Positions 3,206 to 39,587 of a stretch of DNA of 64,000 nucleotides are shown here, one piece after another. The notes below the pieces were generated by a model. That model saw nothing but the letters and a program-made list of their open reading frames with translations, was not told the DNA's origin and did no database searches. Made by a program: the position numbers and the translations under genes. Each line of letters begins with the position of its first letter. The first letter of the stretch is position 1. Origin of the DNA: an uncultured Clostridium sp. (GTDB lineage Bacteria > Bacillota > Clostridia > TANB77 > CAG-508); the NCBI GenBank assembly GCA_945919455.1, contig CAMEJH010000002.1, positions 4,492 through 68,491 on the forward strand, in the 5' to 3' direction.

Positions 3206-3754
3206 CTAATTTTTTAAAGAACTTTTTTCAGATTCACTTTTTAGTAGTTCTAATGCTTTTTTATATTCTTCTTCTCCAAATTCTATTGTTTTTACAATTT
3301 CATCATTGTTTTTCATTTGTATAAATTCATCTATTGTTACCCATTTTGCCTCAGTTGATTCTCCATCTGTAAATTTTATGTCTTGTATATCTATGTCTTT
3401 TTTAAATAACCAAAATTCCTTAAAGTCTGGTGGAGTTTTGTCTCTTCTTATGTCTTTTAGGAAAATTGCTTCTTTTTCTAAAAGTTCTATTCCTAATTCT
3501 TCTTTAATTTCTCTTATTATTCCCTGTACACTTGTTTCTCCAGCTAGTACAGAACCTCCATTGCATTCCCATTTTAATGGATGAGTTTTTTTACTTCCCG
3601 CCCTTTTGCTTATTAATATTTTATTTTCTGAGTTTATTATTATTGCAGTTACAACTATGTGATATTCTCCTTTTTTAAACTTGTATTCCCCTCTTTGAGC
3701 TAATTTTCCTATTTTTTGTTTATTTATATCATATATGTCCCAAAGTTCTGCCAT
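3206..3754 (-). CDS. Nudix hydrolase (182 aa) with its own RBS and promoter inside the longer ORF
   Basis: ATG at 3754 preceded by CAGGAGGT RBS. Nudix box GETSVQGIIREIKEELGIE. About 70% identical over the N-terminus to the paralogue at 16331-17188. The conserved TGnTATAAT motif lies ~45 nt upstream. Confidence 0.6.
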   Translation of the reverse strand: MAELWDIYDINKQKIGKLAQRGEYKFKKGEYHIVVTAIIINSENKILISKRAGSKKTHPLKWECNGGSVLAGETSVQGIIREIKEELGIELLEKEAIFLKDIRRDKTPPDFKEFWLFKKDIDIQDIKFTDGESTEAKWVTIDEFIQMKNNDEIVKTIEFGEEEYKKALELLKSESEKSSLKN

Positions 3755-5269
3755 TTTTACCTCCTGTTTTTCTTGTTTTTCGTTATTGTTTTCCACAATT
3801 ATATCACTTGTTGTGGATTTATCAATAATTTTTACAGCACTTACATCTATTTCATTTTGGCGATATGATGTTATTTTAAATTCAGATTTTTTATCAAATT
3901 TTATTATTAATGATTTTGTGTAGTTGTCTTTATTTGGTTTGTTATATTCTTTTATTGTCATACTTGCATTATATTTTCTTAATGTATCAAAAGTATTCAT
4001 GAACCCCATACCTGTTCCGCCTTCTTCTGCATGTGTTGTACTAGGCTTATTTCCTAAATTTGATAATGTTTCTTTCTCAAATTCTATTCCTGAGTCATAT
4101 ATGTATAAACTGTAAATTTTGTCCATCTTTCCTAATTTTACTAGTATACTTTTGTTTACATTGTCTGAATGATTAATTGCTATTATTGCATTTTTTATAT
4201 GGTCTGCTAATAGTATTTCTAAGTCTTCTTTATTTATTATGTTGTTTACCATATGATGTATGTTTCCTTTTATTTGTACATTGAAGTCTATGTTACTTTT
4301 ATTACATTCTGATTGCATGTATTTTAACATATCGTCTATTTCTTCTACTTCTGTTTTAGTTAGTTCTACTGTTGCGGTTTTATTGTATAGTTCTTTTGAT
4401 ATATTATTTAATCTATCTTTTATATCTGTTGCTTCTGATATTTCACTTTTTAACATTAGTTCATTTATTTTGTATTCTAATGATCTTTGCTTATGTGCTA
4501 GTGTATGGCTTTTCTTGCTAAAACTTAAGTTTTCTTTCTCTAGTTGCTCTACTTCTTGTTTTTTCTTTTTTAGTTCTTCTTTTGTTTCGTTTAGATCTTG
4601 TATTAATAGTTTTTGTTTATAGTATAATTGTAGTGATTTTTGGATTGTGATGAACATGATAAATGCAAAAATTATTAATCCTACAGTTGTATTTCTTGCT
4701 AATTGTATATTGGCGTTAACAAATATTATAGCTAAAAATAATATAATTATACTAATATTAAGAATTAGCAACTCTATATAATCATTTTTCTCATAATTTT
4801 GTAAGAAAGATATGCCATATTTTAACTTTTTCATTTTTAGTATTCTTGTTAATATTATTATATGTACTAATGATATTAGTATGGAGTTTAATATATCGCT
4901 TTTAACATTTATAATCCTATTTATAATAAATATTACTATTGCAGCTATAAAAAATATTACATAGTTAAAAGCTAATGAAATTACAGTAATAATAATAGAA
5001 TTTCCCCTTTTATTGTTAGAAGTAATAGTAGAAACACAACTTAAAATAAGACCTAAAGCTATTAATCCAATCCAAAAGTTCGTTTTACTCTTTATAAAAA
5101 CTATTATTATTGGCATTATAAATAGAAGTATATATGCTATTATTTTCTTCATACTAAAAATTTCTTTATCATTTATTATTTTGATGAATGTAAAATAAGT
5201 ACAATAAATAATAGTAAAAGTTTTTATTAAGTTTACTTGTATCATTGTATCATTAAAATTAATTATCAT
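3206..5269 (-). CDS. continuous ORF: polytopic membrane domain + AgrC/LytS-like GHKL histidine kinase ATPase read in-frame (no stop) into a C-terminal Nudix hydrolase
   Basis: N-terminal ~200 aa strongly hydrophobic with multiple TM helices. SHTLAHKQRSL H-box-like segment and G-box-like TTHAEEGGTGMGF. A ~45-aa linker is translated from promoter-like DNA (SDIIVENNNEKQEKQEVK), followed by a Nudix box. See the separate Nudix feature for the internal start. Confidence 0.5.
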   Translation of the reverse strand: MIINFNDTMIQVNLIKTFTIIYCTYFTFIKIINDKEIFSMKKIIAYILLFIMPIIIVFIKSKTNFWIGLIALGLILSCVSTITSNNKRGNSIIITVISLAFNYVIFFIAAIVIFIINRIINVKSDILNSILISLVHIIILTRILKMKKLKYGISFLQNYEKNDYIELLILNISIIILFLAIIFVNANIQLARNTTVGLIIFAFIMFITIQKSLQLYYKQKLLIQDLNETKEELKKKKQEVEQLEKENLSFSKKSHTLAHKQRSLEYKINELMLKSEISEATDIKDRLNNISKELYNKTATVELTKTEVEEIDDMLKYMQSECNKSNIDFNVQIKGNIHHMVNNIINKEDLEILLADHIKNAIIAINHSDNVNKSILVKLGKMDKIYSLYIYDSGIEFEKETLSNLGNKPSTTHAEEGGTGMGFMNTFDTLRKYNASMTIKEYNKPNKDNYTKSLIIKFDKKSEFKITSYRQNEIDVSAVKIIDKSTTSDIIVENNNEKQEKQEVKMAELWDIYDINKQKIGKLAQRGEYKFKKGEYHIVVTAIIINSENKILISKRAGSKKTHPLKWECNGGSVLAGETSVQGIIREIKEELGIELLEKEAIFLKDIRRDKTPPDFKEFWLFKKDIDIQDIKFTDGESTEAKWVTIDEFIQMKNNDEIVKTIEFGEEEYKKALELLKSESEKSSLKN
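3786..3818 (-). promoter_or_regulatory. copy 1 of conserved extended -10 promoter/operator motif AGTGATATAATTGTGGAAA, flanked by CCACAA/TTGTGG palindrome arms
   Basis: Identical 19-mer at 3790-3808, 17704-17722 and 19262-19280, each 30-45 nt upstream of a minus-strand start codon. Confidence 0.5.
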
Positions 5270-5778
5270 ATAAACACATAAGCTACCTTTCTAATTTTTG
5301 ATTTATTATATAACAAAATAAAAATATAAGCAATATAAGTTTTACCTTATATTGCTTTAAATTATACTATCCCATCCACTTTTGTAGCCAAAGTACTAAT
5401 TCATCAAACCAATCCATACTCTCCACCACCTTTTTTCTTTTGTTCAGGTTATCCTGATACTAAAAAAATATCATTTATGCATGTTACTATAGGCGGTATA
5501 AGGTAATAGAAAATACTAGCAAAAAATAAAAAAATATAGTATTTTTATAAATAAAAAAAAAGCACTATAACGAATAAGTCACAGTGCTTCTAAATTGATT
5601 ATAATATGGGAGTTATGAATACCCAATAAGATAAAACTAGTCAATGTTCATAAAATTTTATGAATTTTTCTTTTGTTAATTTTATCTTATTGTTATTATA
5701 TAGTCCATCTTTTTTAATTATATAGTATATTATAATAGGAAAAAATAGAAAAACGTTAAAAAATCTAGTATTTTCATA

Positions 5779-6567
5779 CTAGATCATTTTCTTTATTTTA
5801 TCTTTATAATAATAAATAAATTCCATTGGTGTAGGTATTCCAGTTTCATAGTTTATTCTTGCTGTATAATGTGTTGTTAAATCTTCTATTGGTGACACTC
5901 TCCATGCATGTATTATTGCATTTTGAATACCATTAGTAATAGTATTACCAGACTTTTTATACAGTTTCGTTAAATGCTGAATAACATTTGTATTATTGTC
6001 TTCATTTTGAATTAAATATAAAATTGCATCATGTATATATTGCCTTCCTTTTAGTTTTGCAGTCACTCCAATCAAGTCTAACTCATTATAAATACAGTCC
6101 GATATTTTACTTTCATTATCTTCAATCGTTTCTTCTATAGAACTTGTGCTTTTGCAAGAAGCTACTTGTCTTAAATTAATAAAATTGTTTAGCACATGGT
6201 CGCAAGAATATTTAGGATGATCTTTATAAAGTATTAAATCTACTCCATTTCTATGAAGTATATCATATGTTCTCTTTGAATTTACATGCGTTGTTACTAT
6301 TACTATCGGTTCATATTTTAAATTTAGTTTTTTCATGTTTGATAAAAATTCTAATGAATCTGTGTTGCCACTTGTGCTATTGTTTAATTCCAAATCTAAT
6401 ATAATTCCTTCTGGGTTTTTAGTTTTTACATATTTTAGACCATCAATATCTGAATCTGTTATTGCAACTATTTCTATATCATTTCTCTTTTTAGCGCAAT
6501 TTATAAAATTATTACAATCATTAATATCATCCTCTATAATTAAAATTTTCATAGGCTTGGAATCCAT
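5779..6567 (-). CDS. Spo0A-like response regulator (receiver domain + Spo0A_C-like DNA-binding domain), divergent paralogue
   Basis: Receiver-like N-terminus (MKILIIEDD..., ILDLELNN). C-terminus IQNAIIHAWRVS...IPTPMEFIYYYKDKI parallels Spo0A HAIEVAWSRG...KPTNSEFIAMVADKL. Length (262 aa) is similar to Spo0A. Confidence 0.55.
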   Translation of the reverse strand: MDSKPMKILIIEDDINDCNNFINCAKKRNDIEIVAITDSDIDGLKYVKTKNPEGIILDLELNNSTSGNTDSLEFLSNMKKLNLKYEPIVIVTTHVNSKRTYDILHRNGVDLILYKDHPKYSCDHVLNNFINLRQVASCKSTSSIEETIEDNESKISDCIYNELDLIGVTAKLKGRQYIHDAILYLIQNEDNNTNVIQHLTKLYKKSGNTITNGIQNAIIHAWRVSPIEDLTTHYTARINYETGIPTPMEFIYYYKDKIKKMI

Positions 6568-6707
6568 ATTTCTCCTCCTTTTGGCTCTTATCGCTCATAA
6601 TATACCATAAATCATCATATAATACCACATTAATGTAGAATATTTTTCTATACGTGCACTATAATTATACTTTAAAATTAATTAAAAATAGTTAGGAGCA
6701 TTGTACT

Positions 6708-7064
6708 ATGAAAAAAAAATTTAATAATGATTCAGAAAAAGCAGATAAAATTGCTAGAGGCAAGAGAGTTAAAGAAATTAGAGAAAATGAATTAAAAATG
6801 AATAAAACTCAGCTTGGGAAAGAAATTGGAGTTTCAAGTCAGTTTTTAGGTTTGGTCGAAGAAGGTAAAGGTAATTTAGTATATAGTAGTATAAAAAAAT
6901 TAAGAGATTTAAGTGGACATTCAGCAGATTATATTCTGTTTGGTCTTGATGATAGTGTTATTAAAGAAACCAAAAAGTATTTAGATAATTTTTCTGATAA
7001 TGATATAATTAGTGCTTTAGAAATTATTAAAGAATTATGCTTTATTATTCGTAAAAATCAGTAA
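6708..7064 (+). CDS. XRE-family helix-turn-helix transcriptional regulator
   Basis: KTQLGKEIGVSSQFLGLVEEGKGN matches the HTH_3 pattern. Confidence 0.65.
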   Translation: MKKKFNNDSEKADKIARGKRVKEIRENELKMNKTQLGKEIGVSSQFLGLVEEGKGNLVYSSIKKLRDLSGHSADYILFGLDDSVIKETKKYLDNFSDNDIISALEIIKELCFIIRKNQ

Positions 7065-7150
7065 TTTACTTCTATTTTTATAATTACTTAAAAAATGAAT
7101 CATCATTATTATATAACATTTAATAATGGTGATTCATTTAATAATTTTTA

Positions 7151-7927
7151 CTATTCATTTACACATTTTTCTGAACATATAATTTCTTCCATTTTTGAAT
7201 ATACAGTATTATAAATTTCTTCTTCTGGTACTATATCTATTAGTCTAACACTTCCATATAGTGATATATGTTTTGCAATTTCTTTATATATCGAACTTTT
7301 TACTTGATCTTCGTATTTTTCACAAATTGCTTTTTCTGCTTTTAAAGCACCTAAAACAATATGTTTTTCACTTGAATTAGAACGCCAAGTTAACTCTCTA
7401 AATCGTATTGGATTTTCAATAACAAATTTTGTTAATTCATATTTGTCTTCTAATCTTTCATCTACAGAAAGTTCTACTCTAAAAAAGCATCTTGCCATTA
7501 CATTGAAAAAAATTCCTCTTCTTTTTCCTTGATTGAATAGCCAGTGGTCTCCAAATGTAGAATCTGATTTTATAGGCATTGCTTGTAAAGCTGCTTTATA
7601 TCCAATTGTGAAATTAAACCAAGCCCAAAATCTTTCATCTGTTAATATATATCTAGGTAAATCTTTTAATGCTTCATATATAATAATTGAATTTTGGTAA
7701 TCAACTTCTGAATAATCTCCACTTTCACTTGTTAATAATTGGATTTCTGGAATTTTATACTTTTTTTCTTCATATATTTTTCCACTATAAATTTCTTTTA
7801 TCCAGTCTGAAGTTTCTGCTTTTTCTTTTATTTTTTCTGTTGCAAATTTTGAATTTTTTCTTAGAGTTTCTATTGCTTCATCTGTCATAAAACAAATATT
7901 AATCTTGTTCATCTTCATTACCTCCAA
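7151..7927 (-). CDS. hypothetical protein, last gene of the 5-gene operon
   Basis: 258-aa ORF overlapping the upstream gene by 29 nt. No recognisable motif. Confidence 0.5.
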   Translation of the reverse strand: MEVMKMNKINICFMTDEAIETLRKNSKFATEKIKEKAETSDWIKEIYSGKIYEEKKYKIPEIQLLTSESGDYSEVDYQNSIIIYEALKDLPRYILTDERFWAWFNFTIGYKAALQAMPIKSDSTFGDHWLFNQGKRRGIFFNVMARCFFRVELSVDERLEDKYELTKFVIENPIRFRELTWRSNSSEKHIVLGALKAEKAICEKYEDQVKSSIYKEIAKHISLYGSVRLIDIVPEEEIYNTVYSKMEEIICSEKCVNE

Positions 7928-8807
7928 TCATTATGTTTCCAAATGTTATTTTCATTAAGTCTTCAATTGCATTAACTGTACCATTGTTTAGTAATTCTTG
8001 TGCAAGTTCTGCAGAATCTATTTCATAGAACTTGTCTTCTGTAAGTTCATATCCGTATTTTTTCTGAAATCCATTTTTTACTGATCTAAACCATCTATAA
8101 TTTAGTTCTATTTCATCAAAATCATATTGCTCATTTTTTATTTTTTCCAGTGCTTCTATAAGTATTGGAATCGCTAGCATAGAGAAGAATATATTTTGAT
8201 AGTTATTATTCTTTTTCATGTTATCATACATGTTAAATTGTTTTTCAGGTAAATATGCTATAATTTTGTCCCCAATTTCAACTCTCATATTCTTTTTGTC
8301 TGTTTCAGTATCTTTTATAATTAAAAATATTGAAGATACTTTTTTATCTGATGTTTCATCATAATCTATTACTATTGTGCTTCCATTATCTATAGCTATA
8401 ATATCATATTTTTCAATATAAAAATTATAATCTTCGTAATCTTCTAAGAAGTCATTGTTTCTATAATTTTCGATATCTTGTGTTGCATATATAAAACTTG
8501 ATATTACTACTCTATCACTTAAATCTGATATTAATATTTTAATATCTTCTGGTTCTAAACCAATATTATATGTTTTTCTAAATACTGATTTTGAACATTC
8601 TACAATTACACAGGCCTTTGCTTTTCCTTCTTTTATTAAGTTGATTATAGCTTCATTATTTATTTCAATATGAGCATCTTTTAAAACCAAATATTCATCT
8701 TCTTGTACCTGTTCATATTCAAGTGAATATGTTGTGTCTTTATAACAACTATCTAATCTTGAATTGTTGATTGTTGGATATGGAAATAATTTATTCTTTA
8801 TTTGCAT
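7899..8807 (-). CDS. hypothetical acidic protein, 4th gene of the 5-gene operon
   Basis: 302-aa ORF overlapping the upstream GHKL gene by 17 nt. No recognisable motif. Confidence 0.5.
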   Translation of the reverse strand: MQIKNKLFPYPTINNSRLDSCYKDTTYSLEYEQVQEDEYLVLKDAHIEINNEAIINLIKEGKAKACVIVECSKSVFRKTYNIGLEPEDIKILISDLSDRVVISSFIYATQDIENYRNNDFLEDYEDYNFYIEKYDIIAIDNGSTIVIDYDETSDKKVSSIFLIIKDTETDKKNMRVEIGDKIIAYLPEKQFNMYDNMKKNNNYQNIFFSMLAIPILIEALEKIKNEQYDFDEIELNYRWFRSVKNGFQKKYGYELTEDKFYEIDSAELAQELLNNGTVNAIEDLMKITFGNIMIGGNEDEQD

Positions 8808-10704
8808 ACATCTTCACCTCACATGCATATAATTCTTTTAAATCTGTTATAACCTCTATTTTAGTTCTTCCGTTATGTAATGGAATTTTAACTGCTTTTC
8901 CATTTTTTATTTCTGCTTTTGTTCCATTAACTACACAATCTATAATGTTTATATTATATTTTGTGTTAGAATCGTCTAAATAATACATTTCTAGTTCACA
9001 ATTTTTTTCTTCATATAATGAGTTAAATGAAATTACATATTTTCCACTTTTTTTGTCTACTACAAATAGTCTGTATTGCATTCCTTTTAATGGCACTATT
9101 CTTAATATTTCTTGGTCTCCCTCTTCATTAACTCCCTCTTCTGTGTCTGTGTCATGAGGGCCTCCTCCATGTCCATAATTTGTTCCATGTGGTACTGGTG
9201 AACCTTCTCCTGGTTCATGTGAGCCAATATCTGGCTGTAATGCATTACCATTTTCATCTTCTTCTATTCCTATTTTGCTTTTTGCTTTATTTTTTATTGA
9301 TTTTGAAATTGTTGGTCTTTCACCTACTATGACTTGGGTTTCTTCCCCTTCATCCATTCCATTATTTTCATCTACTTCTGGTAAATAATCACTTGCTCCT
9401 TCTATATCTAATTGCTCATTTTGGCTTGATGATAATACCTCATATATAAATTTTTGTATTTCTGTTTTTAATTGTTGAATCATGTTTGAAACTTCTTTTC
9501 TAAGCCCAATATCTTCTATTCTTTTTAATTCCCAGTCTGTGTGTTGTGGATTTTCTATGTCACGTAATGTCTTGTTTAAATCGTCGTCTTGTATTATGCA
9601 TATTGCAGAACATGGAATAGTTGATATGTTTTTAAATGATTTTATTTTCATATATGGATATCTGACCATTACACATTCATTTGTAGCAAGATATGATTCT
9701 TCTTTGTTGAATCCTTTTACATATATTTTTGCTTTTCCATATGTGTCTATTTCTATTTCTTTTGTTTGTACTCCTTCCGCTTCGGTTAATAATAAATATT
9801 GTGATTTTATATGTCTTTTTGCATTATTTAATATTAGTTCTTCACTGTTTACAATTCTCCTTAGAGTTTCTTTATTTATTACTATTGTATCAACTTTTAC
9901 TTCTAAGTCTCCAAAGATTATAGCAGCCATAAAGCTATCAAGTATTTTTGTGATTATTTCTTGTTTCCATGTTGGTTGTTCGTTAAATCCTAATATGTAT
10001 ATATCAGTTCCTGGTGTAGTTCTTGTAAAGTTTTTGTCAAGTTTTAATTGTTCCAACATAGGAGAGTTCTTTTCGTCACTTCCATAATATCCTATTCCTT
10101 GTGTTAGCTCGTCTGTTCCTGGCATTGTTGTTGAGCATAATTTTGATATTCCTATATATCCTACTTCGTTTTCAATGGTCTGTGTAGAATAAAATACAGT
10201 ATTAAAACCGCTTGCAACAAATGATGCAAATTTTCCTATACCTTTTGAACCACCACTTGTTCCTGTTTTATCTGTTATTCCACTTCCTTTTGTTAAAAGG
10301 TAAAATGCTGTTTGCCCTCTACTTGATACTCCTGTTAGTCCTTTTGTATTAAAGTCACTTATTCTTAAACATTTAATTTGTTCTCTTTTTATTGATGCAA
10401 GCATTTTTTCTAATTGTTCTGCATCTTTTATCTTGTTGTTGGCTTTTCGGTATTCTTTGCATGATGCAATTTCTTCTTCTAGCCTTTTTTCGCCTGGAAT
10501 GTCTTCTTTATTGATTTCAAATAATTGAAATTCTATTTTTACTTTGTCTTCTCCTTCTGCCTTTGCATCTATCGAGTTTTGACATGATTCTCTTGCTAAA
10601 GAAGCTATTGGGTCTTTTTTAAATGTTTCCATATCTGATGTATCTAATCCAAATTCTGTTGTATAGTTGTTACCTTTAAATCTCCATTTAATTTCTTCGT
10701 TCAT
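8791..10704 (-). CDS. GHKL-superfamily ATPase (HATPase_c_3/MORC/MutL-like Bergerat fold) with a C-terminal beta-rich domain
   Basis: N-box LARESCQNSIDA (ExxxNxxDA pattern of GHKL ATPases). Gly-rich G-boxes TGTSGGSKGIGKFASF. 637 aa. Starts 4 nt after the upstream gene's stop. Confidence 0.6.
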   Translation of the reverse strand: MNEEIKWRFKGNNYTTEFGLDTSDMETFKKDPIASLARESCQNSIDAKAEGEDKVKIEFQLFEINKEDIPGEKRLEEEIASCKEYRKANNKIKDAEQLEKMLASIKREQIKCLRISDFNTKGLTGVSSRGQTAFYLLTKGSGITDKTGTSGGSKGIGKFASFVASGFNTVFYSTQTIENEVGYIGISKLCSTTMPGTDELTQGIGYYGSDEKNSPMLEQLKLDKNFTRTTPGTDIYILGFNEQPTWKQEIITKILDSFMAAIIFGDLEVKVDTIVINKETLRRIVNSEELILNNAKRHIKSQYLLLTEAEGVQTKEIEIDTYGKAKIYVKGFNKEESYLATNECVMVRYPYMKIKSFKNISTIPCSAICIIQDDDLNKTLRDIENPQHTDWELKRIEDIGLRKEVSNMIQQLKTEIQKFIYEVLSSSQNEQLDIEGASDYLPEVDENNGMDEGEETQVIVGERPTISKSIKNKAKSKIGIEEDENGNALQPDIGSHEPGEGSPVPHGTNYGHGGGPHDTDTEEGVNEEGDQEILRIVPLKGMQYRLFVVDKKSGKYVISFNSLYEEKNCELEMYYLDDSNTKYNINIIDCVVNGTKAEIKNGKAVKIPLHNGRTKIEVITDLKELYACEVKMYANKE

Positions 10705-10707
10705 TGT

Positions 10708-13251
10708 TTATATCCTCCTTATTATAAACTCCGTTTTATTGTATGAATTAACTGTGTTTTCTACTTGAAATTTTTCATCTAAAAAGCTTCTTATTATCCC
10801 TATTAAAAGATATTTATTCCATGGTGTTTCTAATTTTGGTAGCATTGCATAACCATTAAAATTTTCTGTGCTTATACATTTATAGTTATCTAAAATTAAG
10901 TCTATTAATTTTTCTATTCTTTGTATTTGTTCATTAGTTATTTTGAATTTGTCTTTTCTAATCATAGTATCAATATTTATTTGAACATAGTCATCACTCA
11001 TATCTTCCATAAATGTTAAATAACTATACAATCCTCCAATATTCATCCTTTGTATATAATTTTGTATTTTTTCATGATTGAACATTTCCAAGCTTTGTGC
11101 ATATTCTTTTATGAGCATATCTGTTGTTTTAGTTATTTTTTCTTTGCTAATAAATGGTCTACTATAAAAGTAATCTTTATATAAGTAATTTATTATAGAA
11201 AATAGTTCAAAATGTCCTCGTTTTAAATGTAACTTGTCAAATAGTTCTTGGTTTGATATTCTTAATTTTGCATAAATTTTTCTTGATGATAATATTTTTG
11301 TATCAAATTGTATAAACATATTTTCTATATATTTTTTTAGTTCTTCTATTGTTTCTTTTTCAATTTTTAGTTTGTCAAAATAGATGTAGCACTTAGAATC
11401 TATTCGTATAAGTCCATTTTCTTTCTCACTGTATATGTAATTACTATATGTGTAATCATTTAATCCTGGAATTTTTTCTTTTATATCTTCAATAGAAAAT
11501 TCGCTTTCAAAGCTTTTGAAAGTATCTATTATCATATCTCTTGGAGTATAGTCCATTTCAGATATAGTTATATAGTCACGCTTTGTTGAAAATTCTTTTG
11601 GTAATTTGTCATCAATACATCCTTTTAAATAAAAGTAGTTGTCTATTCCATATTCTTCTAATTTTATTTTAAATTTATCAAATATTGTTCTATAATATAT
11701 GGTAGGTTGGTTCTCTACAATGAATTCTAATATTTCATTCAATAGATCTTCTGGTATTGACACACTATATTCTTTGACTATGTAAAGTCCTTTATCTTTT
11801 GTTATTAATTCTGCCCTTTCTATCATTCCTTGTATAGAACGCATAGATGGTATTTCTTCTAATTTTCCATATTGTTCTTCTACTTTTTGCATAAGAAGCT
11901 TATAGTCTTCTTCACTTCCTATACGGAATCCATTTTTAAATGTTTCTTTTATTTGGTATAAGTAAAGTTCGCTAAGATTCATTCCTTTCTTTATATATAA
12001 GTTTCCTTTATTTTTTCTATATTCTTTTTCTAATAATGTTTTTTGTATTTGGTTTAGTCGTTTTAAATCTTTTTCACTGATAAAATTTTCCATTGGTCTT
12101 AAGTTTTCTTTAGATATTTCTTCTATTGAAGTGTTTTTTTGATTATAAATAATTTTAAATTCATTATCATAAGTAATATCAAGCTCTTTTAACTCTAATA
12201 TCAAAAGTAAATATTGAAGCAATTCTTTATTATTTATTGATTTTGAGAATTCTTCTTCATTTACATATAATTCATCTTCTTTTATCAGATTTTTATATAA
12301 ACAATATGACAATATTTTAAAATTCTCTTTATATGATAGTATTTTATTTATTGCATTTTTTTCTAACTGCTTTGTTCTTTGTCTTGTAATGCCTATTAAA
12401 TTTCCCGTTTCTTCTAATGATAATCGTTTTTGTTCTTCATTATGATTATATCTTTTTTCTATTACAATTTTTTCATTTGGTTTTAATTTTTTTGAAATAC
12501 CTGAAATAATTTCTTCTTCTAACTGCTGATGTTTTATTCCTGTTTCTTTTAAAATTTTTTCAATTTCTTTTAGGTCATTTGAAAATATACATATTATTGA
12601 GTTTATAGAAACTTGTTTTAAGTCTTTTATTATATTTATGTTGTTTGAAAATAATATTTTTAATTGTAATTCATTATTTATTATTTCGGCTATTTCAAGC
12701 TTATCAAAAAATTCATCTATATCTTTGATTTTAAAGTATATATCCCTGTATATTTTTCTGGAATCTTTTACTATTGTATAATAATTAAAATAACAAATTT
12801 CTTTATTTTGATAATTGTTATTTAGCATGTCTAGAAGTGTTACATATTTTAGAGTTTCTTCTATATCACAATCTGTTTTTCTGATATTTTCATTTATAAA
12901 ATGATATAATTCTCCTTCTGTTAGTGTTTTATATTCATTTAACTTATTTTTAAATTTTTCTACTTTTTCGACACCTATTGCCTGATCTGCTAATAATTGA
13001 AATCCTTTTTTTTCTATATAGTTAAATTTATTCGCACAAAATGTATTTATTGCATTTGGCTTGATTAATTCTTTTCCATAAAAATTCCATAATGCTTTTA
13101 ATACATCTTCTTTTGAGAAATAATCCATTTTCCATAATTTACTTGCAATTAAATATTGAACGAATTCTTCTTCATATATTGTTTCGTTTTTTGTTTTGTT
13201 ATTAACTAGTTTTTCAATTACCTTTTTTTCATAAAATACATTACTTATCAT
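10708..13251 (-). CDS. large (847 aa) protein with an internal sigma-70 region-4-like HTH; no P-loop seen
   Basis: Segment KRYNHNEEQKRLSLEETGNLIGITRQRTKQLEKNAINKILS mirrors the sigma-70 region 4 pattern (LSLEEVGxxFGVTRERIRQIEAKALRKL). Start overlaps the upstream small gene by 4 nt. Confidence 0.5.
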   Translation of the reverse strand: MISNVFYEKKVIEKLVNNKTKNETIYEEEFVQYLIASKLWKMDYFSKEDVLKALWNFYGKELIKPNAINTFCANKFNYIEKKGFQLLADQAIGVEKVEKFKNKLNEYKTLTEGELYHFINENIRKTDCDIEETLKYVTLLDMLNNNYQNKEICYFNYYTIVKDSRKIYRDIYFKIKDIDEFFDKLEIAEIINNELQLKILFSNNINIIKDLKQVSINSIICIFSNDLKEIEKILKETGIKHQQLEEEIISGISKKLKPNEKIVIEKRYNHNEEQKRLSLEETGNLIGITRQRTKQLEKNAINKILSYKENFKILSYCLYKNLIKEDELYVNEEEFSKSINNKELLQYLLLILELKELDITYDNEFKIIYNQKNTSIEEISKENLRPMENFISEKDLKRLNQIQKTLLEKEYRKNKGNLYIKKGMNLSELYLYQIKETFKNGFRIGSEEDYKLLMQKVEEQYGKLEEIPSMRSIQGMIERAELITKDKGLYIVKEYSVSIPEDLLNEILEFIVENQPTIYYRTIFDKFKIKLEEYGIDNYFYLKGCIDDKLPKEFSTKRDYITISEMDYTPRDMIIDTFKSFESEFSIEDIKEKIPGLNDYTYSNYIYSEKENGLIRIDSKCYIYFDKLKIEKETIEELKKYIENMFIQFDTKILSSRKIYAKLRISNQELFDKLHLKRGHFELFSIINYLYKDYFYSRPFISKEKITKTTDMLIKEYAQSLEMFNHEKIQNYIQRMNIGGLYSYLTFMEDMSDDYVQINIDTMIRKDKFKITNEQIQRIEKLIDLILDNYKCISTENFNGYAMLPKLETPWNKYLLIGIIRSFLDEKFQVENTVNSYNKTEFIIRRI

Positions 13252-13489
13252 AATTCAAATCTCTTCTTTTCTTTTTTATTATCTTTTCTAAATTCTTCTC
13301 TTTGCTTGTCTAATTCCTCTTGAATTGCATTGAATATTGAATCTATTTGATCTTCTGTGTACTCATAAAAAGAAGAATTGGATAAATTATGTAGTTTTGA
13401 GATCAATTCTATTATTTTATTTGTTCGATTTTCTGCAATTCTTTTAAAATTTTCTTTTTTAGTATCCATTTTTATCTCCTTTTCCATGT
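13248..13489 (-). CDS. small charged protein (about 80 aa), first gene of the 5-gene operon
   Basis: ATG at 13489 with AAGGAG RBS 6 nt upstream. The longer ORF to 13520 lacks an RBS. Helical, Lys/Glu-rich. Confidence 0.4.
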
Positions 13490-13668
13490 ATATTTTAACA
13501 CATTCGGAAATATTTGTCAAATATTTTATAATTATTTGGTAATATTTTATAATTATTTTGTATTTTATAATGCTTTATTAACACAAAATATATTTTTTCA
13601 TTGAATAAAAACCAATGCTAACATGTAAAAATACAGTTGCACTGGTTTTATATTTACTAACTATTCCT

Positions 13669-14022
13669 TTATATTAACCTTTTCCAATTTTCTTCTTTAA
13701 ATCCAACAAAAATACCTTTATTTGATATTAATAATGGTCTTTTTATAAGCATCCCATCACTTGCTAATAATTTTATCTTTTCTTTGTCGCTCATAGTTGT
13801 CAATTTTTCTTTTAAGTTTAACTCTTTATATTTTACTCCACTTGTATTAAACCACTTTTTTATGTTTTGTTCACTACAATTTATCCATTCTTCCAATTCT
13901 TTAACTGTTGGTATTTCTTCAACTATGTTTCTATCTATAAATTCAATATTGTTTTCTTCTAACCACTTTTTTGCTTTTTTACAAGTAGAACATTTTGGAT
14001 ATTCTATAAAAATATTTTTCAT
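13669..14022 (-). CDS. ArsC/Spx-family (YffB-like) thioredoxin-fold protein
   Basis: 117 aa with N-terminal CSTC (CxxC) at the position typical of the ArsC/Spx family. Strong AAGGAGGGAAC RBS. Confidence 0.65.
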   Translation of the reverse strand: MKNIFIEYPKCSTCKKAKKWLEENNIEFIDRNIVEEIPTVKELEEWINCSEQNIKKWFNTSGVKYKELNLKEKLTTMSDKEKIKLLASDGMLIKRPLLISNKGIFVGFKEENWKRLI

Positions 14023-14037
14023 TAAGTTCCCTCCTTT

Positions 14038-15324
14038 TTATTCTGTTACTAAACTAATTATCCAATAAATCCATGATTTTATTGTTGATGCTCTTCTATA
14101 ATATGTAATATCACTGGTAATATTATATAATTTACATTCTCTCATATAATTTACAATTTCATCATCAGAAGGCATTTCTGATTTTTCAAAATATTTTTTT
14201 ATTGTCATATGAAAAACTTTATGTGATAATATTAATTTTACAAATTCTATTTGCCTTGATTTATAATTTAATTTTAATATTTGTTTTCCTAAATTAGTGA
14301 TTTCGAATTTTTTTATTTTAGTTCCTGACTTTTTAATTAATCCTAAATATATAGCTGCATCTGTATAATAATTAGTTTGCCTAGATACAAATTCATAATT
14401 ATTCGTTATTTCTTGTTTTTCTTTTTCAGAGTTTTGAAGCATTTCGCATAAGTTTATAACTCTTTCGAAATTGTTTGCTTGTGGAAATGAAACTGTTGGT
14501 TCTTGATCAAAATTTTTTATATTGTCTATTAAATTTTGTATTGTTCCTAAATCAATATTTGTATCTTCAATACTATATTTTTTACATTTAACTAATTCGA
14601 TAGAACTATATTCATTCTCTTTATTAAATTTATATTCAAATATTGTAAATATTCCATTAGAATATACTATATATATTGGTCGCACTAATTTTGTAACTTT
14701 TGACTTCCATAATCTATATGGATAATATAATTGTCTTACTAAAAAATCTTCTGCTACTACATTTTTAGCTTCAATTAAAGCTAAACTATTAGTTCCCTCA
14801 TATCCACCATCTATTTCTATTCTTGAATTTTCAACATTAATACTCATTTTTTTATTACTATTTATTTGGGCTATTTCAAAATTAAACACTCCCGAACCCA
14901 TCTTTCCACTTACTGTTGGTACTAATTCCTCTTCTCCCAAAAAGTCCTCAAGTATTTTTGTAATATATGCACAATTTAATGCCAAAGTTTCACTAGTTAT
15001 ATTATTATAATCTAAACTTTCTATATATGGAAGAAACTCAACTTTTTGTACTTCTTTTGGCATTCTTTCAAATTTTTTATAAGCATCAAATTTTGCTACC
15101 ATATAACTATTACTTGATATTGGTAAAATTGATAACTCATTCTTTTTTAATATTTCAGGAATACTTTCACTATTATCAAATTTAGTCATTAGTCTAGCTT
15201 CTCTAAATTCATTTATTTCTTTAGAAGAGATTTTAAAATATCCTTTATTTTTAATTTCTTCTAAAATGTTATATTTTTCAAAGATTTTTTCCCATGCTTC
15301 TTTATTAGTTGAACATCTAGACAT
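14038..15324 (-). CDS. putative Type II restriction endonuclease (PD-(D/E)xK), cognate to the adjacent Dam-family methyltransferase
   Basis: IEIDGGYEG...LALIEAKN fits a PD-(D/E)xK core. 8-nt start/stop overlap with the upstream MTase gene. Confidence 0.5.
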   Translation of the reverse strand: MSRCSTNKEAWEKIFEKYNILEEIKNKGYFKISSKEINEFREARLMTKFDNSESIPEILKKNELSILPISSNSYMVAKFDAYKKFERMPKEVQKVEFLPYIESLDYNNITSETLALNCAYITKILEDFLGEEELVPTVSGKMGSGVFNFEIAQINSNKKMSINVENSRIEIDGGYEGTNSLALIEAKNVVAEDFLVRQLYYPYRLWKSKVTKLVRPIYIVYSNGIFTIFEYKFNKENEYSSIELVKCKKYSIEDTNIDLGTIQNLIDNIKNFDQEPTVSFPQANNFERVINLCEMLQNSEKEKQEITNNYEFVSRQTNYYTDAAIYLGLIKKSGTKIKKFEITNLGKQILKLNYKSRQIEFVKLILSHKVFHMTIKKYFEKSEMPSDDEIVNYMRECKLYNITSDITYYRRASTIKSWIYWIISLVTE

Positions 15325-16174
15325 TATTTTTTACTAACACCTCTCTTACTTCACCTCTTGAATTACCATTACTGTTTATTGCTCTTTTGGCTTTAACTGA
15401 AATAATTTTATATTTTTCTGTATTTGCATATAATTTTCTAATAAACTCGCAATCAGAATTTGAAAGTAAAATATGAACACCTTTATCAGTCAATCTATCA
15501 CACAAACTTTTTAATCTTATCTGTTCTTCTTCTCCAAATCCGCTTTCATTATACCCAGTAAAATTTGAAGTTTTAGAAATTGGAGCATAAGGAGGATCAA
15601 AATAAACAACAGCTCCCTTTTTTATTCCTTTAACAGCACTTTCAAAATCTCCACTTAAAAAAGTTATATCAACATCATTAAAATATTTACTTACAGCTCT
15701 CAAACCAGCTTCGTTAATTATATTTGGGTTTTTATATCTACCAAAAGGCGAATTGAATTCGCCTACACTATTTACTCTATATAATCCATTATAACAAGTT
15801 TTATTAAGGTACAATATTCTTGCAGCTTTTTGAACTCCAGTTAAATTATTATATTTTTGTGGTATTCTGTCCAATTCTCTGATATTGTAAAAATTTTCTG
15901 ATGTATTCGAATATTTTTCTTTCTTTAGCTCAGATATTAAATCCTCTACATTATCTTTTATAACTTTATAAACATCTATTAGCTCATGATTAACATCATT
16001 TATTATAGCTTTTTGTGGTTGAATATCAAATAATACTGCCCCTCCTCCAACAAAAGGTTCATAATACATAGTATTTTTAGTTATTTTGGGCATATATTTT
16101 TTTATTTCTGGTAGTAATTGCCTTTTTCCCCCTACCCATTTTAAAACAGGCATAACCAATTTATTTTTTTTCAT
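15317..16174 (-). CDS. dam: Dam-family N6-adenine DNA methyltransferase (D12 class)
   Basis: LKWVGGKRQLL, FVGGGAV (AdoMet motif) and DPPY catalytic motif. 285 aa. GAGGAG RBS. Confidence 0.8.
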   Translation of the reverse strand: MKKNKLVMPVLKWVGGKRQLLPEIKKYMPKITKNTMYYEPFVGGGAVLFDIQPQKAIINDVNHELIDVYKVIKDNVEDLISELKKEKYSNTSENFYNIRELDRIPQKYNNLTGVQKAARILYLNKTCYNGLYRVNSVGEFNSPFGRYKNPNIINEAGLRAVSKYFNDVDITFLSGDFESAVKGIKKGAVVYFDPPYAPISKTSNFTGYNESGFGEEEQIRLKSLCDRLTDKGVHILLSNSDCEFIRKLYANTEKYKIISVKAKRAINSNGNSRGEVREVLVKNNV

Positions 16175-16330
16175 ATATATCTCCTCTTTTGAACTTTATA
16201 TATTTATATCATATTTTTTTGTTTTTTTCAAGAACTTTTGTTTTGTTGTAAATTTTTTTATAATTTGATCCATCTTTCTTTTCTAATCTATTGCTGATTA
16301 TATCACGCTTTTTATTATTAGTCTATAAGA

Positions 16331-17188
16331 CTAGACTGTATTTCTTATTATCTCACTTTCAAAATATTTTTCTTGAAAATTAGTTAATTCTCTTATTTCA
16401 CTATCTGTATATTCTTTTCCTTTAGGCACAATAATAAGTTTATCATCATCATCATTTGTTCTATTTATTACTGCTATACATTCTCCTTCAAACGTTTTTA
16501 GTGGTTCATCTATTCCTAAAATATAACAGTCTATTTCTTCTCCATCTTGGCTTTTAGTGTTAGGTATATATCCATAATTTACAGGATATATAAATCCATA
16601 TTTAGGATGTTTACTGTTTAATGGTCTATCTATTTCTGCTTTAACTGTTTTTCCTATAAATTGATATGATTCCCTTTGTTTTATTTCTAGTGCTTTGTTA
16701 TATTCTTCTATTCCAAAATCAACTGTTGGTACAATTTCTTTTTTATTATACATATTTATAAATTCTTCTATTGTTACCCACTTGCAATCTATAGATTCAC
16801 CATCTGGAAATGTGATTTCTTTTTCATTTATATCTTTTCTAAATAACCATAAATCTTTAAAATCTGCTGGTGGTCTGTCATCCCTTATTTCTTTCAAAAA
16901 AATTGCATCTTTTTTGGTAAATTGTATTCCTAGTTCTTCTTTTAGTTCTCTTATAATTCCCTCTAGACTTGTCTCTCCCGCTAAGATTGAACCTCCATTA
17001 CATTCCCACATTAATCCAAATCTTTTATGAGCTGCTCTTTTTGTTATTAAAATTTCTTTATTTGAGTTCATTATTATTCCAGTTACAACTAGGTGATATT
17101 CTCCTTTTTTTAGCTGATATGCATCTCTTTGAGCAATTCTTCCTGTTTTCTTTTTGTTTATATCATATATATCCCATAATTCGCTCAT
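16331..17188 (-). CDS. Nudix hydrolase fused to a C-terminal inorganic-pyrophosphatase-like domain
   Basis: Nudix box GETSLEGIIRELKEELGIQ. C-terminal NYGYIPNT and DGEEIDCYILG resemble family-I PPase motifs (NYGFIPQT, DGDPLDVLV). Confidence 0.55.
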   Translation of the reverse strand: MSELWDIYDINKKKTGRIAQRDAYQLKKGEYHLVVTGIIMNSNKEILITKRAAHKRFGLMWECNGGSILAGETSLEGIIRELKEELGIQFTKKDAIFLKEIRDDRPPADFKDLWLFRKDINEKEITFPDGESIDCKWVTIEEFINMYNKKEIVPTVDFGIEEYNKALEIKQRESYQFIGKTVKAEIDRPLNSKHPKYGFIYPVNYGYIPNTKSQDGEEIDCYILGIDEPLKTFEGECIAVINRTNDDDDKLIIVPKGKEYTDSEIRELTNFQEKYFESEIIRNTV

Positions 17189-17207
17189 ATAGTGCCTCCT
17201 TTAAAAT

Positions 17208-17681
17208 TTATTTCATGTCATCATTTATTTTATGTACTGGAAAAACCATTTCTTTAAGAATTTCTTTGATAACCTGTGGTTTTAATGGATATTCTTCTAT
17301 TTTGTCTAAATCTAACCATTCATATTGTAAATGTTCTTTTCCTTCCACATTTTTTATTGTGTCTGTTATTTTTTTGTCTTCTTCTCTTTTGAATTCTGCT
17401 TTGTGTACAAACATAATTTCATGGTATTTTCTGCCTTTCATTTCAAAAAAGTTTTCTATTGTAGAAATATATCCTGTTATTTCTATTTCTTTTCCCGTTT
17501 CTTCTATGACTTCTCTTTTTACTGTTTCTTCGGAATTCTCACCTATTTCAACTCTTCCTCCTAATAGTGCATAATGATCTGAATTAGCATTTTTATGTAC
17601 TAGTACTTTGTTATTGTGCATAATTATTACACCTGCCCTTATATTTAGTTTGTAATCTTCAACATCAATTGTAATATCCAT
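17208..17681 (-). CDS. Nudix hydrolase
   Basis: GGRVEIGENSEETVKREVIEETG matches the GX5EX7REUXEEXGU Nudix box. AAGGAG RBS. Conserved promoter motif upstream. Confidence 0.7.
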   Translation of the reverse strand: MDITIDVEDYKLNIRAGVIIMHNNKVLVHKNANSDHYALLGGRVEIGENSEETVKREVIEETGKEIEITGYISTIENFFEMKGRKYHEIMFVHKAEFKREEDKKITDTIKNVEGKEHLQYEWLDLDKIEEYPLKPQVIKEILKEMVFPVHKINDDMK

Positions 17682-17699
17682 TCTATTTATTCTCCTTTC

Positions 17700-17731
17700 T
17701 TATTTTCCACAATTATATCACTGTTTGTGAA
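17700..17731 (-). promoter_or_regulatory. copy 2 of conserved extended -10 motif AGTGATATAATTGTGGAAA with CACAAA/TTGTGG arms
   Basis: Exact 19-mer at 17704-17722, ~31 nt upstream of the Nudix start at 17681. Confidence 0.5.
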
Positions 17732-17756
17732 TTAATTGTAAATATATTTATCTTAA

Positions 17757-18140
17757 TTATATCTCAAAATCCCACAAACTTAGTTTTCCTTTTGCTTCTA
17801 TTGGATCATCAAAAACTTCTACATTTTCTAATTGCCAGCCATAGTTTTCTCTAAAGGAACTCTCTGTATATATATCTTTATTTTCTTTTAATAATATTTC
17901 TTTAAATTCTGGTGACATTTTTATACAATCTACTAATGTTACTTTTCCTAATATTTTTCCTGTTGGCATATTTTTTGGAATATATTTTGCTAATCTTTTT
18001 GTTGCTTCTTTGTCTATTTCTTTTCCTGCATGTATTAGCAAATCTCCTCTATATTTAGTTTGCCAACTTCTAAATTCGAATCTCTTGTCTTGCTGCATTA
18101 TTAGTGTTGCCCATGGTTGCTTTATTGTTAGTGTTTTCAT
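17757..18140 (-). CDS. ASCH-domain protein
   Basis: MKTLTIKQPWATLIMQ...EFR, the characteristic ASCH/PUA-like opening. 127 aa. Confidence 0.55.
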   Translation of the reverse strand: MKTLTIKQPWATLIMQQDKRFEFRSWQTKYRGDLLIHAGKEIDKEATKRLAKYIPKNMPTGKILGKVTLVDCIKMSPEFKEILLKENKDIYTESSFRENYGWQLENVEVFDDPIEAKGKLSLWDFEI

Positions 18141-18268
18141 AAGATTTCCTTTCTTTAATTTACATTATTCTTTACCATTTTTTTATTTTTTTCTCACACT
18201 ATTCTTATAAAATGTATTTATAAATTTTAAGGAAGTATATAATCATCAAAATTCTTTTTGAATCTTTT

Positions 18269-18823
18269 TTAGAACATCTCTCTATTATACAGCGTCTCTG
18301 CAAAGTCTTTATACCCTTCTAATTCATCATTTATAAAATCTATATCTAGCTCTTCTCTTCCTTCATCATTTGGATAGTACTCTTCATATCCCCATATTCC
18401 TCCACAATCTTCTGGATATGCTCCTGATTTAGCTTTTATACAAATTGGATTTTCAAGTTTTTCATTTACTTCTTTTTCTAGTACAATGTCATGTATCCAA
18501 TCATCGCCAAAATCATATACAAATTTAATTCTTTTATATTTTTTTAAATATTTATCAATTTTTTCTTTTCCAGAGTCTAGTGTTTTTCCTCTTACATTTT
18601 CTATATCATATTCATCTTCTGCAGGTACTCCTATAAACTGTCCCCTTTTATGCAATGTTCCACCTACTTCAAATTCATATAAATGATATCCGCACCATTC
18701 AAATGCTATTTCTATTATTGCAGCTAAATCATTAAATGTGATATTAGCAGGTATCTTTAATCTTCTCCATGTTGGTGGATGTGATTCCCTTATCATTATT
18801 TTTATTTCATAATGCTTATTCAT
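18269..18823 (-). CDS. plasmid pRiA4b ORF-3-like family protein
   Basis: PPTWRRLKIPANITFNDLAAIIEIAFEWCGYHLYEF matches the hallmark IWRRIxVPxxxTLxDLHxxIQ...HLHEF pattern of PF07929-like proteins. Confidence 0.5.
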   Translation of the reverse strand: MNKHYEIKIMIRESHPPTWRRLKIPANITFNDLAAIIEIAFEWCGYHLYEFEVGGTLHKRGQFIGVPAEDEYDIENVRGKTLDSGKEKIDKYLKKYKRIKFVYDFGDDWIHDIVLEKEVNEKLENPICIKAKSGAYPEDCGGIWGYEEYYPNDEGREELDIDFINDELEGYKDFAETLYNREMF

Positions 18824-18843
18824 ATAAATTTTTCCTCCATATT

Positions 18844-19233
18844 TTATTTAAATAATTCTATATATCCTAATTTAATAAAATGATTTATTTCTTGATAGCA
18901 TCCTACTTCTTTACTTGGCATTTTATATATATAAATTTTTTGATTAGTTTTATTTTGAATTTTCTTTGCAACTAAATAGCTCATTTCTGCAAAAGCTTCA
19001 TATCCAATATATCCTTCAATTCCGTTTTTATCAAAATTTAGAAGTAATAAATCGTCTGTTTTATTTAAATTTTCATAAAATAATTCATATGCATATTTAT
19101 ATTCCATTTCTATAGTATCATTTATTTTCTTAGGATAATCAATTACTTCATATTCTCTTTTTTCTAATGCTTCTTTTATTTTTTGTACTTCTTTATAAAA
19201 TTTTGCTGAACCAGCAATTACTATTTTTCTCAT
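18844..19233 (-). CDS. hypothetical small Rossmann-like protein, possibly nucleoside 2-deoxyribosyltransferase-like
   Basis: MRKIVIAGSAKFY opening only. Shares the conserved upstream promoter motif with the Nudix genes. Confidence 0.3.
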   Translation of the reverse strand: MRKIVIAGSAKFYKEVQKIKEALEKREYEVIDYPKKINDTIEMEYKYAYELFYENLNKTDDLLLLNFDKNGIEGYIGYEAFAEMSYLVAKKIQNKTNQKIYIYKMPSKEVGCYQEINHFIKLGYIELFK

Positions 19234-19257
19234 AATAAAATACCTATATCCTCTTTC

Positions 19258-19290
19258 TTCTTTTCCACAATTATATCACTATCTGTTACT
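19258..19290 (-). promoter_or_regulatory. copy 3 of conserved extended -10 motif AGTGATATAATTGTGGAAA
   Basis: Exact 19-mer at 19262-19280, ~37 nt upstream of the start at 19233. Confidence 0.5.
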
Positions 19291-19472: not shown

Positions 19473-19640
19473 AATTTGATTGTGATTTTTGAGAAATTTT
19501 GTTAACTTGAGTTTTTATTAGTTTTAATAGGGTTAGAGCAAATTGGTAAGATTATGAAATCGGTTAAAATATGTACTTTTTTGCAATGATTGTCCCCAAT
19601 TTGTCCCCAAAAATTTTTAATAAAAATGGAGGTTTTAACA

Positions 19641-39332: not shown

Positions 39333-39371
39333 TTCTTTTTTATTTTTTCCCCAATTATACCACTTCCTGTA

Positions 39372-39587
<216 letters not shown>

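Follow-up and report, generated by a model that had tools for sequence, protein, structure and literature searches.

Three copies of a 19-nt sequence, AGTGATATAATTGTGGAAA, occur within a 64,000-nt stretch of DNA from an uncultured Clostridium sp. (contig CAMEJH010000002.1; the whole stretch analyzed is referred to as the window), and each copy precedes a gene on the minus strand. The 19-mer proved to be the core of a 34-bp module, conserved among uncultured gut Clostridia, in which a TG-extended −10 element is enclosed by two inverted 9-mers that fit the consensus of the DnaA box. We read the module as a promoter combined with an operator and, at a lower and only moderate level of confidence, take DnaA to be the factor that would bind there. 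The module would thereby probably tie the expression of housecleaning genes, including those for Nudix hydrolases, to the replication state of the cell.

Architecture of the module and its fit to DnaA boxes

The exact copies of the 19-mer lie at 3790-3808, 17704-17722, and 19262-19280, all on the minus strand and ahead of start codons, in agreement with an earlier sequence-only reading of the window. When up to three mismatches were allowed, five matches were found versus 0.12 expected, and none of 100 shuffled windows reached five. The two inexact matches are located at 39346-39364 (two mismatches) and 37025-37043 (three mismatches); the latter lies within a KAP-NTPase coding region and was taken as a chance match. 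The distance from the end of the 19-mer to the start codon is 35, 22, and 28 nt for copies 1, 2, and 3, respectively, and all three start codons have a ribosome-binding site in front of them. Each copy contains TGATATAAT, confirming the TGnTATAAT extended −10 (TG at −15/−14) that the earlier reading had recognized. The window is ∼26% GC and has the look of chromosomal DNA from a gut Clostridia-type bacterium; scanning it for the promoter consensus was uninformative in DNA of this composition (133 sites versus 149 expected). The combination of an upstream AG and a downstream TTG(T/G)GGAAAA was present at four of the 24 TGNTATAAT sites in the window, i.e., the three copies and the variant at 39346. 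The copies had been described as intergenic, which does not apply to copy 1: it is situated inside the mechanically called open reading frame (ORF) 3206-5269, in the final codons of a histidine-kinase-like gene.

Alignment of 23 distinct instances of the 19-mer revealed conservation past both of its ends, aattATcCACA-nna-AGTGATATAATTGTGGAAA-A, and defined a module of 34 bp with the structure (T)TATCCACA-N3-AG-TGATATAAT-TGTGGAAAA. The right arm, TGTGGAAAA, is found in all three window copies; on the opposite strand it reads TTTTCCACA, an accepted DnaA box. The left arm, with consensus ttATcCACA, stands at a fixed distance of 3 nt from the 19-mer; at this offset (−12) the mean match was 6.3 of 9 positions to TTATCCACA and 7.1 of 9 to TTWTNCACA, compared to 2.1-3.4 at other offsets. 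The left arm is exactly TTATCCACA at three loci and exactly TTATACACA at three loci, and because it lies outside the pattern used for the search, it provides independent evidence for the DnaA-box reading. Five matches to the 19-mer from unrelated phyla had no left arm and look like chance occurrences. Both arms fit the DnaA box TTWTNCACA, a consensus taken from outside the host's own dnaA and oriC. The order of elements is a DnaA box, N3, AG-TGATATAAT (the −16 region and extended −10), and an inverted DnaA box that abuts the −10, with 14 nt between the outer boxes. Read on the bottom strand, a further 9-mer with weak resemblance to a box, TATATCACT, stands 2 nt beyond the right box; between the outer boxes, the weak box-like AGTGATATA and the right arm make up a "double box" with 11-bp phasing. 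A CCACAA...TTGTGG palindrome had been suggested as an operator to be read by local XRE-family regulators. The inverted repeat and its operator-like character were upheld, and its definition was refined; since the arms correspond to the DnaA boxes TTATCCACA and TTTTCCACA, the likely binding factor is DnaA and not a local XRE regulator.

Copy 1 of the module (3789-3820, minus strand) is composed of the left box AAATCCACA at 3812-3820, N3, AG plus TGATATAAT with the −10 at 3798-3803, and the right box TGTGGAAAA at 3789-3797; a TTGATA −35 element is located 16 nt upstream. Copy 2 (17703-17734, minus strand), which stands between an ASCH gene and a Nudix gene, has the left box TAATTCACA at 17726-17734, the −10 at 17712-17717, and the right box TGTGGAAAA at 17703-17711. 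In copy 3 (19261-19292, minus strand), the left box is a degenerate TTAGTAACA, the −10 is at 19270-19275, and the right box TGTGGAAAA occupies 19261-19269. A diverged paralogue of copy 3, TAATTTACA-gga-AGTGGTATAAT-TGGGGAAAA, is found at 39345-39376 on the minus strand, 150 nt downstream of a tRNA-Met gene and before the first gene (38625-39332) of the island described below.

An inverted pair of perfect DnaA boxes with the same 14-nt spacing, TTATACACA-N14-TGTGTATAA, lies at 45746-45777 (strand not assigned), within the coding region 45624-46643 of the minus strand and with no −10 between the boxes. By a rough estimate, ∼10^-3 perfect N14 inverted pairs are expected by chance in the window. 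This pair may be a stand-alone DnaA-binding site, and its presence argues for the box pair as an independent binding unit.

An Rfam scan of the window returned two tRNAs only, with no RNA element at the motif, and RNA folds of the three copies yielded no consistent hairpin or terminator (z = −0.5 for copy 3), the arms being followed by A-runs. An intrinsic terminator or other RNA structure was rejected on the grounds that the folds differ among the copies and that A-runs are present instead of a U-run.

The spacing of the two boxes was placed in context by a metagenome scan for TTATCCACA-N14-TGTGGAAAA, which yielded at least 120 loci in organisms of 24-68% GC. Most of the matches listed sit within clusters of additional boxes, and at least 21 of them are within ∼0.5-1.5 kb of a gene bearing Walker-A or domain-IV signatures of DnaA. 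Among the matches listed, the layout TTATCCACA-N3-TGTGGATAA-N2-TGTGGAAAA recurs, with a third box exactly at the position of the module's −10. With the selected pairs left out, inverted pairs in the matches listed showed spacer peaks at 2-3, 14-15, 25-26, and 36-37 nt and direct pairs a peak at 2-3 nt, in a sample that is biased because the query itself consists of two boxes. These results show N14 to be one of the regular spacings in phased DnaA-box arrays. In two low-GC contigs (L120, with the site at 8586-8625 in an organism of 25-29% GC, and L135), dnaA starts 8 nt after TTATCCACA-ACTGTTAATAATTT-TGTGGAAAA; both dnaA genes were confirmed with Pfam (Bac_DnaA, 6.7e-55, along with DnaA_N and Bac_DnaA_C). 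The box/−10-like/box design of the module is repeated here at a presumably autoregulated promoter and implies a very short leader.

Distribution in other genomes and predicted control by DnaA

A scan for the exact 19-mer, covering one genome per species for 185,579 species, identified 29 loci. About 24 of these are in low-GC metagenome-assembled genomes (MAGs) of uncultured gut Clostridia, one copy each, and the carriers include Hadza-gut MAGs, Clostridium sp. CAG:440, and Candidatus (Ca.) Scatovivens. At every Clostridia locus, a gene in the orientation of the motif begins 14-86 nt downstream of it. The co-regulation suggested in the sequence-only reading is favored over duplication, the module being intact in many species while its flanks are unalignable. 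In the relatives, the genes behind the module encode both Nudix families of the window, a third Nudix, a YfcE-family phosphodiesterase (with its own copy in five other species), an ASCH protein, a CxxCxxCC protein, a PlsC-type acyltransferase, a GNAT protein, and uncharacterized proteins. A regulon of nucleotide-sanitizing enzymes, as first supposed, is plausible for part of these genes, and the remainder broadens the set beyond that description. A scan of viral contigs for the 19-mer gave no matches, and thus there is no sign of a phage promoter.

For a sample chosen independently of the motif, orthologues of the first Nudix protein were drawn from the protein database and their upstream DNA was then inspected. 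The sequence TAATTCACA-gat-TGTGATATAAT-TGTGGAAAA was found at L155-157 (72% amino acid identity) and CAATCCACA-aat-TATGATATAAT-TGTGGAAAG at L158-159 (68% amino acid identity). In L160-162, which have a fusion form of the protein, TAATTCACA-gga-AGTGGTATAAT-TGGGGAGAA is positioned ahead of the operon; in L163-164, the fusion gene keeps only AGTGATATAAT, and a degraded module, TAATCCATA...TCTGGAAAA, precedes the neighboring Nudix gene. The full module was thus present in two of four sampled lineages of this family, the operon-upstream variant in one, and the −10 only in one. Orthologues that keep the module possess both boxes and TGATATAAT with one or two substitutions amid unalignable flanks, and the invariant block of six aligned Nudix upstream regions is CACA plus TGATATAATTGTGGAAA only. 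The second Nudix gene of L151 has no boxes. The features that are kept appear to be the outer boxes and the TG-extended −10, whereas the AG and the middle GTG seem dispensable, which speaks against a reader of GTG repeats. The regulon is probably restricted to one lineage and subject to turnover.

We propose that the center of the module is an extended −10 promoter of the housekeeping sigma-A type, with a weak and variable −35. One box would lie in the promoter spacer, and the other, abutting the −10, would cover the discriminator and the transcription start. DnaA, probably as DnaA-ATP, would bind the two boxes cooperatively and occlude RNA polymerase. Under this scheme, the Nudix, YfcE, and other small housecleaning genes would be transcribed less at high levels of free active DnaA and more once DnaA has been titrated or inactivated after initiation. 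The use of sigma-A, the start site, the binding of DnaA, and the sign of regulation are all inferred from sequence. DnaA-box specificity and the base-contacting residues are conserved among Escherichia coli, Bacillus subtilis, and Clostridioides difficile (PMC2533591, PMC7561715), and DnaA serves as a transcription factor for dnaA and for the nucleotide-supply genes nrdAB, nrdD, and purH (PMC8203912, PMC11317965). DnaA prefers pairs of boxes 2-3 bp apart (PMC11317965, PMC8203912), and "double DnaA boxes" with 11-bp phasing are preferred by E. coli DnaA in vivo (PMC11317965). Synthetic promoters with DnaA boxes around the core were repressed more than 8-fold by DnaA (PMC12626423). If the proposal is correct, a group of abundant, uncultured gut Clostridia ties the expression of its housecleaning hydrolases, Nudix enzymes among them, to replication-initiator activity, the link between DnaA and nucleotide supply (E. 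coli nrd and pur) extends to nucleotide-pool sanitation, and the module represents a compact natural DnaA-responsive promoter that could be used as a reporter.

Several observations weigh against the assignment to DnaA. Positions 1-2 of the left box are weakly conserved, and the left box of copy 3 matches at 6 of 9 positions only. The window as a whole shows no general enrichment of DnaA boxes (five TTWTCCACA versus 1.8 expected, and 16 TTWTNCACA versus 12.2). The box preference of the host was assumed from the conserved specificity in Firmicutes and clostridia (PMC2533591, PMC7561715), and stable binding of DnaA in B. subtilis usually requires larger clusters of boxes (PMC2533591). The target genes are functionally heterogeneous. 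Conservation is patchy, as in L163, where only AGTGATATAAT was kept. For the gene behind copy 3, which encodes a 129-aa protein, the full module was found in none of three orthologue lineages and a degraded one in a single lineage: L151/152 carry ATGATATAATGTGAAAAAT in a clearly homologous promoter, and unrelated promoters precede the orthologues in L150 and L153/154. Finally, a literal text search of the literature for the module core led to HsdC, a controller protein of Mollicutes whose binding site, (GTGTTAN5)2, overlaps the −10 and the start site (PMC5282649). The Mycoplasma gallinarum hsd promoter contains TGTGATATAATTGTGG, which is identical to the module core at 15 of 16 positions (PMC5282649), and this likeness to a Mollicutes operator means that another factor could read the same DNA.

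The alternative that survives best, though we consider it unlikely, is accordingly a dedicated repressor other than DnaA, such as an XRE or controller-protein-like helix-turn-helix (HTH) protein or MraZ, that recognizes the inverted repeat or the GTG triplets spaced by 11 nt, the resemblance to DnaA boxes being coincidental. Besides the hsd similarity, this explanation could draw on the binding of MraZ to GTG(G/T) repeats (PMC5282649) and on the several XRE-type HTH proteins encoded in the window. Both arms, however, match the complete 9-mer DnaA consensus beyond the GTG, the 14-nt spacing recurs in authentic DnaA-box triads beside dnaA genes, and motif-independent orthologues that keep both outer boxes have lost the middle GTG (TATGATATAAT). 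No regulator gene consistently adjoins the module across the relatives' loci, and the HTH genes of the window reside in variable islands whereas the module is common to ∼24 species. To our knowledge, none of the boxes of sporulation sigma factors, the TcdR family, Rex, CRP, Fur/PerR, LexA, NrdR, NrtR, or Spo0A fits either the arms or the spacing. The Spo0A box, TGTCGAA, differs from the arm at G, and the Spo0A-like gene of the window scored 68.6 against a cut-off of 200. A spacer operator of the MerR type was also rejected, because the dyad spans the −10 and is not located between the −35 and −10.

It is improbable, in our judgment, that the module is simply a strong constitutive promoter with no bound regulator, in which the sequence after the −10 is kept for RNA polymerase, as discriminator and initial transcribed sequence, and the copies are held alike by recombination or gene conversion. 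The consensus TG-extended −10 would suit such a promoter, the module is a recombination junction (see below) and its copies are hence exchangeable, and in some homologous promoters TGnTATAAT is retained although the box has drifted (ATGATATAATGTGAAAAAT in L151 and AGTGATATAATCATAC in L163). Contacts with polymerase do not explain why an inverted copy of the downstream 9-mer stands at a fixed position in the spacer. The identical pair and spacing occur at 45746-45777 in the absence of any −10, and gene conversion is unable to homogenize copies over ∼24 species.

Synteny switches, downstream genes, and tRNA-linked islands

Pairwise comparison of the module instances separated them into three classes: orthologous loci, pairs that share only the downstream side (unrelated upstream DNA), and pairs that share only the upstream side (unrelated downstream genes). 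Upstream DNA in the last class is ∼90% identical over 1-2.7 kb, as exemplified by L013/L016 (91.6% identity over 1.5 kb) and L001/L021. The edges of homology are sharp, starting at −14 to −38 from the 19-mer for the downstream-only pairs and ending at +20 for the upstream-only pairs. Mixed combinations are also seen: one upstream region (A) is joined to the 157-aa Nudix gene in L006 and to the ASCH gene in L007, and a second (B) is joined to the 157-aa Nudix gene in L021 and to another gene in L001. Exactly behind the module, the ASCH gene is present or absent as an indel, and the block 19459-19923 followed by the module has a different gene after it in each of four cases (the window, L018, L013, and L016). 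In genomes that have diverged by 10-30%, 34 bp of perfect identity would be expected to seed homologous recombination; few other stretches are long enough, and crossovers would therefore pile up at this element. The switches in synteny illustrate how a short conserved regulatory element could become a preferred crossover point near a tRNA-linked hotspot of defense islands.

A bolder version, which we think doubtful, holds that the module is a portable "plug" that both expresses and mobilizes small genes, i.e., an integrase-free, integron-like exchange of cassettes and tRNA-Met defense islands at a DnaA-controlled promoter junction, perhaps aided by DnaA-bound DNA. More doubtful still is that its primary role is that of a recombination or attachment site (integron- or att-like), with cassettes or islands inserted downstream of a resident promoter. 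The sharp edges, the single upstream block before four different genes, and the exact position of the ASCH indel are all compatible with such a site, as are the ∼210-nt repeats around a 20-kb island that end at the 3′ edge of the module and the tRNA-Met remnants just upstream of it in several species (both described below). No integrase or recombinase domain was detected, however, in the scanned ORFs of the window or among the module neighbors of the relatives, and we know of no tyrosine-recombinase core site that the 9-14-9 geometry would fit. The constant, gene-oriented placement 14-86 nt before a start codon is a requirement of a promoter, and sharp junctions are expected anyway where 34 conserved bp are the sole long identity.

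Recent duplication of one promoter-gene cassette in this genome, the other explanation considered in the sequence-only reading, is scarcely credible. In its favor, all three identical 19-mers fall in a span of 16 kb, Nudix genes follow two of them, and Nudix paralogues occur in the window; against it, identity ends at the edge of the module (∼34 bp), flanks, leaders, and downstream genes are unalignable, and every copy has an orthologous counterpart with the module in other species (L011 in the case of copy 1, L006 and L021 in that of copy 2).

The genes behind the three copies are all on the minus strand. Copy 1 is followed by a gene for a 182-aa Nudix hydrolase (3206-3754), probably co-transcribed with the YfcE-family phosphodiesterase gene directly behind it (2643-3179; PRK09453, 192 bits versus a cut-off of 117). 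Upstream is the membrane histidine-kinase-like gene (3755-5269, minus strand; weak HATPase_c). The stop codon has been lost from its ORF, and the frame continues across the module into the Nudix gene, which accounts for the 687-aa mechanical ORF 3206-5269; L011, the closest relative, has a separate Nudix gene and a kinase ORF (5042-6628) that terminates 8 nt past the module. Adjoining the kinase-like gene is one for a response regulator that has a Spo0A_C-like domain (5779-6567, minus strand; 68.6 bits versus the Spo0A equivalog cut-off of 200), and the two resemble a diverged Spo0A-like pair.

Behind copy 2 are genes for a 157-aa Nudix hydrolase (17208-17681) and, 19 nt after it and probably on the same transcript, a 285-aa Nudix-inorganic pyrophosphatase fusion (16331-17188). 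The N-terminal Nudix domain of the fusion is a paralogue of the stand-alone Nudix encoded by 3206-3754, and none of the three Nudix proteins reaches an NCBIfam equivalog cut-off. A 282-aa fusion form is widespread in metagenomes, and some "stand-alone" Nudix orthologues of the relatives are closer to the Nudix domain of the fusion.

Copy 3 precedes the gene for the 129-aa conserved hypothetical protein (18844-19233), with PRiA4_ORF3 (18269-18823) and ASCH (17757-18140) genes farther downstream. The family to which the 129-aa protein belongs is well conserved, counts more than 400 members, and matches no Pfam or NCBIfam model. The AlphaFold (AF2) model of the protein (pLDDT 87.6) gave weak fold matches, to a nucleoside 2-deoxyribosyltransferase-like fold first and then to DNPH1 and TIR, with a best TM of 0.60 and E = 5e-3. 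A nucleotide-sanitizing role may fit part of the gene set, and relatives add genes of unrelated function.

Copy 3 and its diverged paralogue coincide with the ends of two long direct repeats. The window encodes an intact tRNA-Met (CAT; 39512-39587, minus strand), found in the Rfam scan, and a degenerate 3′ half of tRNA-Met (ctcataacccaaaggtcgtaag...; 19438-19472, minus strand) that forms the start of a ∼210-nt repeat. This ∼210-nt segment (19472-19261) is 77% identical to that running from the anticodon loop of the tRNA-Met to 39345 (39345-39550); the second repeat segment includes a degenerate tRNA 3′ half and the variant module AGTGGTATAATTGGGGAAAA, and homology ends right after the module. 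The repeats flank an island of ∼20 kb (19.5-39.3 kb) with genes for a ThsB-like TIR protein, a caspase, TIR_2, AAA_14/DUF4143, ThiF-DUF6791 with DUF6527, an M78 peptidase plus HTH, a helicase-TnsA with an N6/N4 methylase, UvrD-PD-(D/E)XK, and the KAP NTPase; no integrase was found among the genes of this island. In several relatives, a remnant of tRNA-Met, CTCATAACCCGAAGGT, lies 29-165 nt upstream of the module with no intact tRNA (L156, 3869-3884; L160, 3427-3442; L163, 3874-3889; L013, 4888-4903; L016, 2804-2819). These remnants suggest repeated accretion of islands at tRNA-Met, and the ancestral order was probably tRNA-Met, spacer, module, and housecleaning genes, with islands accumulating at the tRNA. 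TnpV-like genes are adjacent in L155-157. A second defense-like block, at 7151-16174, encodes DUF6339, uncharacterized proteins of 302 and 637 aa, an 847-aa protein with Sigma70_r4, a 90-aa ORF, ArsC, and a DUF6996/DUF6997/DUF7226 protein beside a Dam-type methyltransferase.

Comparison with known promoters, operators, and exchange systems

Among known systems, the module shares with the integron Pc/attI arrangement a resident promoter, interchangeable downstream genes, and a sharp junction; unlike an integron, it is associated with no integrase and no attC-like sites, and its genes carry their own copy of the module. It resembles the HsdC operator in having GTG triplets 11 nt apart over an extended −10. 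The operators of HsdC and MraZ differ from it in being direct repeats before restriction-modification operons, without the upstream inverted TTATCCACA arm, and the targets of the module are not restriction-modification genes and have no adjacent controller-protein gene.

With oriC-type triads (box-N2/3-inverted box-N2/3-inverted box) the module has in common the orientation and the 14-nt distance of the outer boxes. It departs from them in being isolated, outside any large cluster and away from dnaA, with a promoter at its center; the −10 stands in the place that the middle box takes in the usual triad. The Psyn series of promoters likewise contains boxes in the spacer and immediately downstream of the −10, and these sigma-70 promoters undergo DnaA-dependent repression (PMC12626423). 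The Psyn promoters are engineered E. coli constructs, whereas the module is natural and conserved in Clostridia.

A further comparison is with autoregulated dnaA promoters and the DnaA regulon, for which the targets considered were dnaA, nrdAB, nrdD, purH, and polA of E. coli and dnaA, sda, ywlC, and yydA of B. subtilis. Shared features are TTWTNCACA 9-mers on or beside the core promoter, phased pairs of boxes, and targets tied to nucleotide supply. Nudix genes are not among the DnaA targets reported in the literature consulted here. The arrangement in gut Clostridia also differs from that regulon in that many small genes (Nudix, YfcE, ASCH, and others) share one stereotyped 34-bp module whose inverted boxes are separated by 14 nt, and in that the hosts are uncultured. 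The identical box/−10-like/box layout stands directly before dnaA in L120 and L135.

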